From a virus, in the UHGV virus genome UHGV-1750711: a DNA stretch of 22,473 bases, one strand, 5' to 3'. Of this stretch, positions 2,321-2,474 are shown piece by piece. The position numbers and the translations under genes are program-made. The first letter of the stretch is position 1. Every line of letters begins with the position of its first letter. The notes below the pieces were generated by a model that had not been told where the DNA came from, made no database searches, and saw only the letters and a list, made by a program, of their open reading frames with translations.

Positions 2321-2396
2321 GCCGACTTAGCTCAGTAGGTAGAGCAACTGACTTGTAATCAGTAGGTCACCAGTTCGATTCCGGTAGTCGGCACCA
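2321..2396 (+). tRNA. tRNA-Thr (anticodon UGU)
   Basis: Cloverleaf folded by hand: acceptor GCCGACT/AGTCGGC, D-arm GCTC-AGTAGGTA-GAGC, anticodon stem ACTGA/TCAGT with loop CTTGTAA (UGU), T-arm with TTCGATT loop and one mismatch, 3' ACCA encoded. Resembles E. coli tRNA-Thr(UGU). Confidence 0.85.
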
Positions 2397-2399
2397 TAT

Positions 2400-2474
2400 G
2401 CGGGTATCGTATAATGGTTATTACCTCAGCCTTCCAAGCTGATGATGCGGGTTCGATTCCCGCTACCCGCTCCA
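2400..2474 (+). tRNA. tRNA-Gly (anticodon UCC)
   Basis: Acceptor GCGGGTA/TACCCGC, anticodon stem TCAGC/GCTGA with loop CTTCCAA (UCC), T-arm GCGGG-TTCGATT-CCCGC, discriminator T plus CCA. Very close to E. coli glyT-type tRNA-Gly as I recall it. Confidence 0.9.

Follow-up and report, generated by a model that had tools for sequence, protein, structure and literature searches.

The virus genome UHGV-1750711, a stretch of 22,473 nucleotides (nt) that was analysed at its full length and is referred to here as the window, carries two adjacent genes for tRNA-Thr(UGU) and tRNA-Gly(UCC), and is a Rac-type lambdoid prophage of Escherichia coli. Both tRNAs are genuine and of host origin, they lie past a conserved terminator that is linked to the gene of a Q-like antiterminator, and the codons ACA and GGA are enriched in the phage late genes. 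We consider it likely that the two genes form a cassette lodged between a pR'-qut-tR' unit next to Q (late promoter, Q-binding site and terminator, positions 1984-2103) and the lysis genes, and that this cassette is made mainly by Q read-through. The Q-like gene (1445-1987), the tRNA genes (2321-2474) and the holin gene (3161-3376) all lie on the plus strand, so that the tRNAs occupy the slot between Q and lysis on the late strand. The initial annotation of this DNA had placed them in the leader of a Q-controlled late operon, and the Q-like gene upstream and the lysis genes downstream bear this out.

Two tRNA Genes Derived from thrU and glyT

When ARAGORN was run with default thresholds on the whole 22.5-kb window, it returned exactly two tRNAs, Thr(tgt) and Gly(tcc) (Table 1), and Rfam RF00005 matched both over the full length of the model (positions 1-71) with 73.8 and 67.8 bits, respectively, against a gathering score of 29. 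Each gene encodes its own CCA (2394-2396 and 2472-2474), and the two are separated by a 3-nt spacer, TAT (2397-2399). The tRNA-Thr is identical to thrU of E. coli K-12 at 76 of 76 positions. The tRNA-Gly agrees with K-12 glyT at 72 of 75; the three differences are C6 to U and G67 to A, which together form a compensatory pair in the acceptor stem, and one base of the D loop. The positions G1-C72, C2-G71, G3-C70, U73 and C35/C36, which we take to be the Gly identity elements, are the same as in glyT. Because of this full or near identity to thrU and glyT, neither gene is a pseudo-tRNA, and the default ARAGORN calls and the Rfam scores say the same. ARAGORN, Rfam and the sequence thus agree throughout with the earlier description of two canonical tRNAs, with CCA encoded, 3 nt apart.

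In Rfam searches of 1-6000 and 1985-2330 at permissive thresholds, the two tRNAs were the sole genuine matches. A CyaR-like match (23.6 bits, 2705-2774) and matches to the Trp leader and to P9 (2027-2097) proved to be merely terminator hairpins. A promoter call inside the tRNAs (TCGGCA-16-TATAAT, 2388-2415), which was also made in the sibling phage vB_EcoS-683R6 (683R6 below), was likewise set aside, its TATAAT being the D loop of the tRNA-Gly.

The tRNA Genes Lie Downstream of a Q-Linked Terminator

The evidence on the position of the late promoter comes from a comparison of the DNA that follows the Q stop codon in 80-82 loci whose Q-like protein is 93-100% identical to that of the window, and which represent 27 distinct variants. 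The first ~60 nt after the stop codon are common to all 27 variants (TTGATTTTTTACGCATAAAYTGCTTCAATT..GCTTCGCAAAGCTGTATCGCGAGGCG). About 25 nt of variable sequence follow and then, in every variant, an intrinsic terminator that ends 105-115 nt past the Q stop. Across the loci the hairpin of this terminator takes three unrelated sequences, and the terminator after Q is thus conserved as a function, not as a sequence. Directly past it the loci diverge into unrelated sequence: about 60 carry no tRNA, 20 carry Thr-Gly and one carries Met(cat)-Arg-Arg, and wherever tRNAs are present (21 loci) they are always downstream of the terminator. Since Q acts only at a late promoter with its own binding site, promoter and qut must lie in the shared block, upstream of the terminator. 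The conserved block after the Q stop is therefore most likely a pR'/qut/tR' unit, with the tRNAs downstream of tR'; in the window, the cassette begins ~220 nt downstream of the terminator at 2068-2103.

More distant Q homologues were compared as well, namely those of Rac-SA53 and Rac 442/2 (~76%), of Klebsiella phages (~60%) and of a Providencia phage (42%). The same layout of -35, -10, TAnGnT and terminator was found in the Rac-SA53, Klebsiella and Providencia homologues: a -35 at the Q stop codon (CTTGAYT), a -10 position 16-17 nt further on, TAnGnT five bases later, and then a hairpin with a U-run. The aligned promoter sites read TTGATT-17-TATCTT in Rac-SA53, TTGCAA-17-TTGAAT in Klebsiella and TTGACT-16-TATAGT in Providencia, and in the Providencia phage the promoter scan itself calls this site (10/12) right after Q, with a terminator ~70 nt further. 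The position of the candidate pR' of the window is kept in all 27 leader variants and in the distant homologues, and the predicted transcription start falls near 2019. The T, A, G and T of TAnGnT are invariant in seven of seven aligned leaders of the Q family, Klebsiella and Providencia included; by its likeness to the pause element of lambda pR', it is a candidate pause element. The hairpin of the putative tR' (2068-2093) has a folding energy of -16.1 kcal/mol (z -4.3).

This placement departs from the initial annotation in two respects. The tRNAs had been put inside the pR'-tR' interval, and the conserved Q-linked terminator lies upstream of them; they had further been read as part of a constitutive transcript, similar to the 6S RNA of lambda, that ends at 2750-2775, and the comparison places them past tR'. 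The strong terminator reported at that downstream position was found, with a stem at 2750-2768 and eight T.

In the course of events that we propose, a cassette in which a decayed argN/Lys-like relic precedes a copy of thrU and a nearly exact one of glyT would have been inserted into the leader of the late operon. In the lysogen, polymerase starting at pR' would stop at tR' after ~80 nt, and the tRNAs would not be reached. After induction, Q would render the polymerase resistant to terminators, and the tRNAs would be transcribed at the head of the late transcript, from which RNase P and 3' trimming enzymes would free them; addition of CCA would be unneeded. The tRNAs would then boost the supply of two host isoacceptors, each encoded by a single gene copy, that read ACA/ACG and GGA/GGG, ACA and GGA being host-rare codons used two to three times more in the phage late genes. 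Some expression independent of Q may come in addition from a weak promoter of the tRNAs themselves (TATAAT, 2168-2173), and the 2750-2776 terminator, together with the hairpins that precede the holin gene, would keep Q-independent transcription out of the lysis genes. The exact promoter, the dependence on Q, the processing and the translational benefit are what we infer.

Codon Use of the Late Genes

Codon use was compared between the late structural genes of the phage (5,223 codons) and a host reference of 42 annotated K-12 genes (14,790 codons), and the host-rare codons ACA, GGA, AGA, AGG, ATA and CGA were tallied. ACA makes up 12.8 per 1000 codons in the late genes and 5.4 in K-12, that is, 23% versus 10% of Thr codons; for GGA the figures are 15.9 and 6.0 per 1000, or 21% versus 8% of Gly codons. 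In relative synonymous use, ACA is 2.3 times and GGA 2.7 times higher in the late genes, and these two codons have the highest absolute counts among the host-rare codons tallied (GGA 83, ACA 67). The comparison for ACA and GGA that the initial annotation had put forward as a check thus finds both over-represented.

Comparison with Known Late Regions

The arrangement is an ordinary one for lambdoid phages. The record of Stx phage 933W annotates, in this order, pR' at the end of Q, qut, two terminators, a promoter pT, the tRNA island ileZ-argN-argO, a terminator and stxA. The tRNAs of the window are in the same slot between Q and the lysis or cargo genes, as had been proposed, and the same order is met there of a late promoter at the end of Q, terminator(s), tRNAs and a further terminator. 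The first terminator hairpin of the window is similar in sequence (GAACCCGCC...GCGGGTTTT) to the first one after pR' in 933W, a tRNA relic of the window (2241-2317) is homologous to the argN region, and related Thr-Gly cassettes carry an ileZ-like tRNA upstream. The isoacceptors differ, as was also noted at the outset: the two intact tRNAs of the window are not relatives of ileZ, argN or argO but copies of thrU and glyT, and they add dosage for ACA/ACG and GGA/GGG, whereas those of 933W read AUA, AGA and AGG. The Q gene of the window, moreover, belongs to another family (DUF1133), a toxin gene is absent, and the promoter signal ahead of the tRNAs is weaker than the pT annotated in 933W.

The 6S RNA of lambda, which runs from pR' to tR', is 194 nt long. 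StxS of Stx phages measures 258 nt, and in phage Sp5 differential RNA sequencing (dRNA-seq) located a tRNA start site between tR' and stx2AB (PMC7547250). As in these two systems, a short RNA, predicted here at ~80 nt, would lead from beside Q to an intrinsic terminator that Q overrides, and the -10-like element of the window stands just after the start, like the pause-inducing element of lambda pR'. The predicted RNA is shorter than 6S or StxS, and the tRNAs are not part of the unit. A review of Stx phages (PMC8065619) says nothing on phage tRNA genes, and nothing specific was found in the literature on ileZ/argN/argO or on thrU/glyT with prophage.

Origin and Spread of the Thr-Gly Cassette

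In the host, thrU and glyT belong to the operon thrU-tyrU-glyT-thrT-tufB. The cassette keeps the two copies in the same order; it differs in lacking tyrU and the 116-nt spacer, so that the genes are 3 nt apart, and in lacking thrT and tufB. Host-like flanks were not apparent around it, no formal comparison having been made. By its sequence, the cassette is host thrU fused to glyT, captured recently. A scan of viral contigs for the exact pattern of the fused junction found it in at least 120 contigs, and the junction is specific to phages. Among the matches listed there were 116 complete copies, to which the counts that follow refer. The Thr gene is identical to thrU in 67 of them. The main Gly alleles are C6/G67 (~60 copies) and U6/A67 (~50 copies), the wobble intermediate U6/G67 occurs in two and C6/A67 in none, and a second compensatory pair is found in the T stem. 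The very allele that the window has (U6, U20, A67) is uncommon, with four copies, and some copies in other contigs are visibly degenerate. The pattern looks like purifying selection on a working tRNA.

As for the arrays in which the cassette stands, 54 copies are Thr-Gly, 36 are Met(cat)-Lys(ttt)-Thr-Gly and 15 are Met(cat)-Arg(tct)-Thr-Gly. The cassette is also found behind other Q genes and in the toxin phages phi467, SerU-LTIIb and PhiR47_1. It is annotated in 683R6, phi467, PhiR47_1, SerU-LTIIb, JLK-2012 and RefSeq E. coli genomes; these annotated phages share with the window the cassette and its 3-nt junction, and they differ in what lies upstream, which may be a relic, Met(cat)-Lys, Met(cat)-Arg or, in phi467, the stx genes.

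In the window, the place upstream is taken by the relic mentioned above, which is 77 nt long and ends 3 nt before tRNA-Thr. It is called as tRNA-Lys(ttt) by ARAGORN at 90% thresholds only, with no call at default settings and no Rfam match at E<=10, and it aligns with the annotated tRNA-Lys of PhiR47_1 and, at 67%, with the argN region of 933W. It is what is left of a longer array, Met(cat)-Lys/Arg-Thr-Gly, which at least 51 other viral contigs have kept intact. A relic of an ileZ-like tRNA was not found by BLAST within 2104-2240. In the region 2460-3180 of SerU-LTIIb, what remains of a DUF1133 Q gene stands ahead of the second tRNA pair of that phage, and the leader after this remnant, with its terminator and TATAAT, is the same as that of the window; SerU-LTIIb shows that the whole module of Q, leader and tRNAs moves as a block.

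Alternative Explanations

Several observations weigh against expression by Q read-through in support of late translation. The promoter scan of the window made no call at the candidate pR', the -10 of which (TTCAAT) lacks the A at position 2, and the assignment of pR' rests on comparison and not on a strong match to the consensus. The DUF1133 protein scores at the border of the lambda Q family in Pfam (26.3 bits against a cut-off of 26) and is a putative antiterminator, its antitermination role being predicted. A PDB sequence search with this protein gave no match, the solved Q structures (Q21 and Q-lambda complexes) included, so that these complexes cannot be used to place the binding site. 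A strong terminator 3' of the tRNAs would be pointless for Q-modified polymerase alone and hints at Q-independent transcription. As to function, AGA (6.0 times), AGG (5.1 times) and ATA (3.6 times) are more strongly enriched in relative terms than ACA and GGA, and the codon result agrees with a supply function without being specific for it, because most of the synonymous shifts track the phage genes' lower GC content. Finally, the prophage is decaying, to judge from the tRNA relic and from a deletion in Rz/Rz1 that is described below.

The points on expression bear on two other accounts. In the model of the initial annotation, the late promoter would lie after 2068-2103, near the TATAAT at 2168-2173, 2750-2776 would be tR', and the tRNAs would be made constitutively in the lysogen, within a leader of ~600 nt akin to 6S. 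It can draw on the perfect TATAAT, which is kept in copy b of SerU-LTIIb within ~70% identical flanks, on the strength of the 2750-2776 terminator and its conservation in function, and on the possibility, in principle, that the early operon ends at a terminator directly behind Q. We nevertheless hold it to be quite improbable, for phages with a 93-100% identical Q share nothing past ~2103, about 60 of them being without tRNAs, and since these phages are unrelated past that point, a Q-specific promoter and qut cannot lie there. The block upstream of the terminator has a promoter-like layout in all relatives, the site at 2168 has a poor -35 and is not called by the scan, and the tRNAs of 933W and Sp5 come after tR'. 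The tRNAs could instead form an independent constitutive unit that has its own promoter and ends at 2750-2776, a case of lysogenic conversion in which they would act mainly in the lysogen, by helping to decode the rare codons ACA and GGA of genes acquired horizontally, and not so much in late phage development. Such a unit would fit the separate tRNA start site mapped by dRNA-seq in Sp5 (PMC7547250) and the pT annotated in 933W. In 683R6, the scan calls TTGCGA-16-TATTAT at the equivalent place, between tR' and tRNA-Thr. The conserved terminator downstream makes sense only for a polymerase that is not modified by Q; in 683R6, which represents the other leader variant, a terminator of different sequence stands at the place equivalent to 2750-2776 (hairpin energy -11.1 kcal/mol in the window), so that across these two variants it is conserved in function and not in sequence. 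In the window, however, no promoter passes the scan between 2103 and 2320, the lone TATAAT included, and the relatives have three kinds of upstream region without a common promoter. An own promoter is possible, if weakly indicated in the window, and expression of the tRNAs in the lysogen, which is likewise possible, would need a separate one; as the main source of the tRNAs we regard an independent unit as unlikely.

The other two accounts concern what the cassette is for. It might be passenger DNA, a fragment of the thrU-glyT operon acquired by illegitimate recombination and drifting without a selected function, and the identity or near identity to the host genes, the decayed tRNA next to it, the degenerate copies elsewhere and the disrupted spanin gene in the prophage of the window would all be in keeping with this. 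Against it stand the recurrence of one and the same fused junction, in several kinds of array and behind different Q genes, across at least 120 viral contigs, the compensatory nature of the stem substitutions, and the location of the cassette where Stx phages have their tRNA islands, so that drift strikes us as very improbable. Phage tRNAs are also known to buffer against defences that target tRNAs, and the pair could in this sense be spares that replace host tRNAs cut by anticodon nucleases. Here the tRNA-Thr is the same as thrU and the anticodon stem-loop of the tRNA-Gly is the same as that of glyT, so that neither could escape a nuclease that recognises the host species, and to our knowledge no nuclease targets these two isoacceptors; an anti-defence device is extremely unlikely.

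A Structured RNA in the Late Leader

The ~300 nt that follow tRNA-Gly fold far better than shuffled sequences (z -3.2). They contain a four-way junction (2502-2599) followed by U7, a hairpin of which (2572-2593) is called as terminator-like by the scan, and a long imperfect hairpin (2604-2687). One pair of the closing stem of the junction is changed on both sides in 683R6, as read by eye. The folding of the long hairpin is specific to the plus strand (z -4.2, against -0.9 on the minus strand). In RNAalifold with 27 distinct homologues, the same 27-pair helix was obtained with 97.9% of cells paired; five pairs are changed on both sides, and 14 vary through G-U only. In some relatives the apical stem-loop is swapped for an unrelated sequence that still pairs, according to the alignment read by eye.

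No Rfam family matches this structured RNA (2502-2687), and it is absent from lambda, 933W, DLP12 and Rac-SA53. Over the whole region 2476-3143 there is no homology to DLP12 of K-12, lambda or 933W; similarity to DLP12 begins only at 3144, immediately before essD. Of 5,426 complete E. coli genomes, 315 contain a match to 2476-2790. Since the element is also present in ~33 loci of the Q family that have no tRNAs, it is part of the late leader, with the tRNA cassette as an insertion between tR' and the element. In prophages identical to this one, RefSeq annotates a 103-aa hypothetical protein on the plus strand at 2593-2904; this frame overlaps the structured RNA and runs through the 2750-2776 terminator, shows non-multiple-of-three indels and a replaced segment in the relatives, has no Pfam match and is probably not a gene. 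We tentatively suggest that 2502-2687 is an element with a regulatory or processing role in lambdoid late operons that has so far gone undescribed. It might, for instance, be cut by RNase III, and would then set the stability of the late mRNA, or it might give rise to a small RNA from the leader, like StxS. This structured leader RNA is the only open lead of some interest.

The predicted RNA of ~80 nt from pR' to tR' (within 1984-2103) folds into two hairpins (z -2.7) with a U-rich terminator tail, and other leader variants have an unrelated sequence in place of its 3' half. By analogy, it could be the counterpart of lambda 6S or of StxS, and the ~80-nt RNA of the DUF1133 Q family could be a trans-acting small RNA.

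Further hairpins lie between the 2750-2776 terminator and the holin gene. A terminator-like hairpin on the minus strand (2798-2822) faces that terminator, and two on the plus strand (3057-3072 and 3100-3113) stand just before the holin gene; all are kept in 683R6. There is no convincing gene between the minus-strand hairpin and the plus-strand pair.

Gene Neighbourhood

The region 1990-3170 is present at 99.5-100% identity in 38 of 5,426 complete E. coli genomes, with both tRNAs annotated. In strain 127, the element that carries it is a full-length Rac-type prophage with intR, xisR, ralR, recET, racC, kilR, sieB, ydaS/T-like genes and trkG. Upstream of the tRNAs, the window encodes a DUF1367 protein, YbcO and then the 180-aa DUF1133 Q-like protein, whose homologues are named antitermination protein Q in related phage records and whose gene is the last one ahead of the lysis cassette. 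Downstream follow an S21-type holin, lysozyme, Rz, a TrkH-family transporter, ParB, terminase, and head and tail genes.

The gene of the TrkH-family potassium transporter (trkG, 4419-5894, plus strand) lies between the Rz/lysis cassette and ParB/terminase, as in K-12 Rac, of which it is the known cargo gene; it is very rich in ACA and GGA, with 20 and 26 per 1000 codons, respectively. In Rz/Rz1 (3870-4299), 35 nt at ~4153 are missing in comparison with the prophage of strain 127, which is otherwise identical. The deletion puts Rz out of frame, so that the open reading frame ends at 4172 and encodes 104 instead of 154 amino acids, and it also takes out part of the embedded Rz1 lipoprotein gene. 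This copy of the prophage is probably spanin-defective.

Table 1. Positions of the features of the window that are discussed in the text
Feature	Position	Strand	Evidence
Q-like late antiterminator gene (putative), DUF1133 family	1445..1987	+	Pfam DUF1133 2.9e-108; Phage_antitermQ 26.3 bits
Candidate late promoter pR'	1984..2012	+	-35 TTGATT 1984-1989 over Q stop, 17-nt spacer, -10 TTCAAT 2007-2012
Invariant TAnGnT, -10-like; candidate sigma-dependent pause element for Q loading	2018..2023	+	7 aligned leaders
tR'-like intrinsic terminator of the predicted short (~80 nt) leader RNA	2068..2103	+	10-pair stem, T-rich tail (scan)
TATAAT with poor -35; weak candidate tRNA promoter (pT-like)	2168..2173	+	read from sequence
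Degenerate tRNA relic, Lys(UUU)-like, related to 933W argN, without CCA	2241..2317	+	ARAGORN at 90% thresholds
tRNA-Thr(UGU), same as host thrU	2321..2396	+	ARAGORN, Rfam, alignment to thrU
tRNA-Gly(UCC), glyT-derived; compensatory U6-A67 pair and one D-loop change	2400..2474	+	ARAGORN, Rfam, alignment to glyT
Strongly folded four-way-junction RNA, then U7, terminator-like	2502..2606	+	-42.9 kcal/mol, z -5.3
Long imperfect hairpin, 27 pairs, conserved	2604..2687	+	-35.7 kcal/mol, z -4.2
Strong intrinsic terminator between tRNA/leader region and lysis genes	2750..2776	+	stem 2750-2768, T8 (scan)
Holin, EssD/S21 type, first lysis gene of the late operon	3161..3376	+	Pfam Phage_holin_2_1 1.2e-34; RefSeq essD

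Significance

As a discovery, the finding matters little, for cassette and slot are already known: the tRNAs are annotated in RefSeq genomes and GenBank phage records, and with the annotation of the 933W genome record, tRNA islands behind Q, pR' and tR' had already been documented. What the analysis adds is, on the one hand, the extent of the cassette, a widespread mobile element in at least 120 viral contigs which, by our estimate, occupies about one extra place per three complete E. coli genomes. On the other hand, for the uncharacterised Q family DUF1133, the comparison now gives a position for the late control unit, with a predicted promoter at the Q stop, TAnGnT next to it and a terminator ~80 nt on. 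Three positions set the phage Gly allele apart from glyT, sequencing can therefore separate phage from host tRNA, and this distinction would permit a clean test of when the prophage tRNAs are made.

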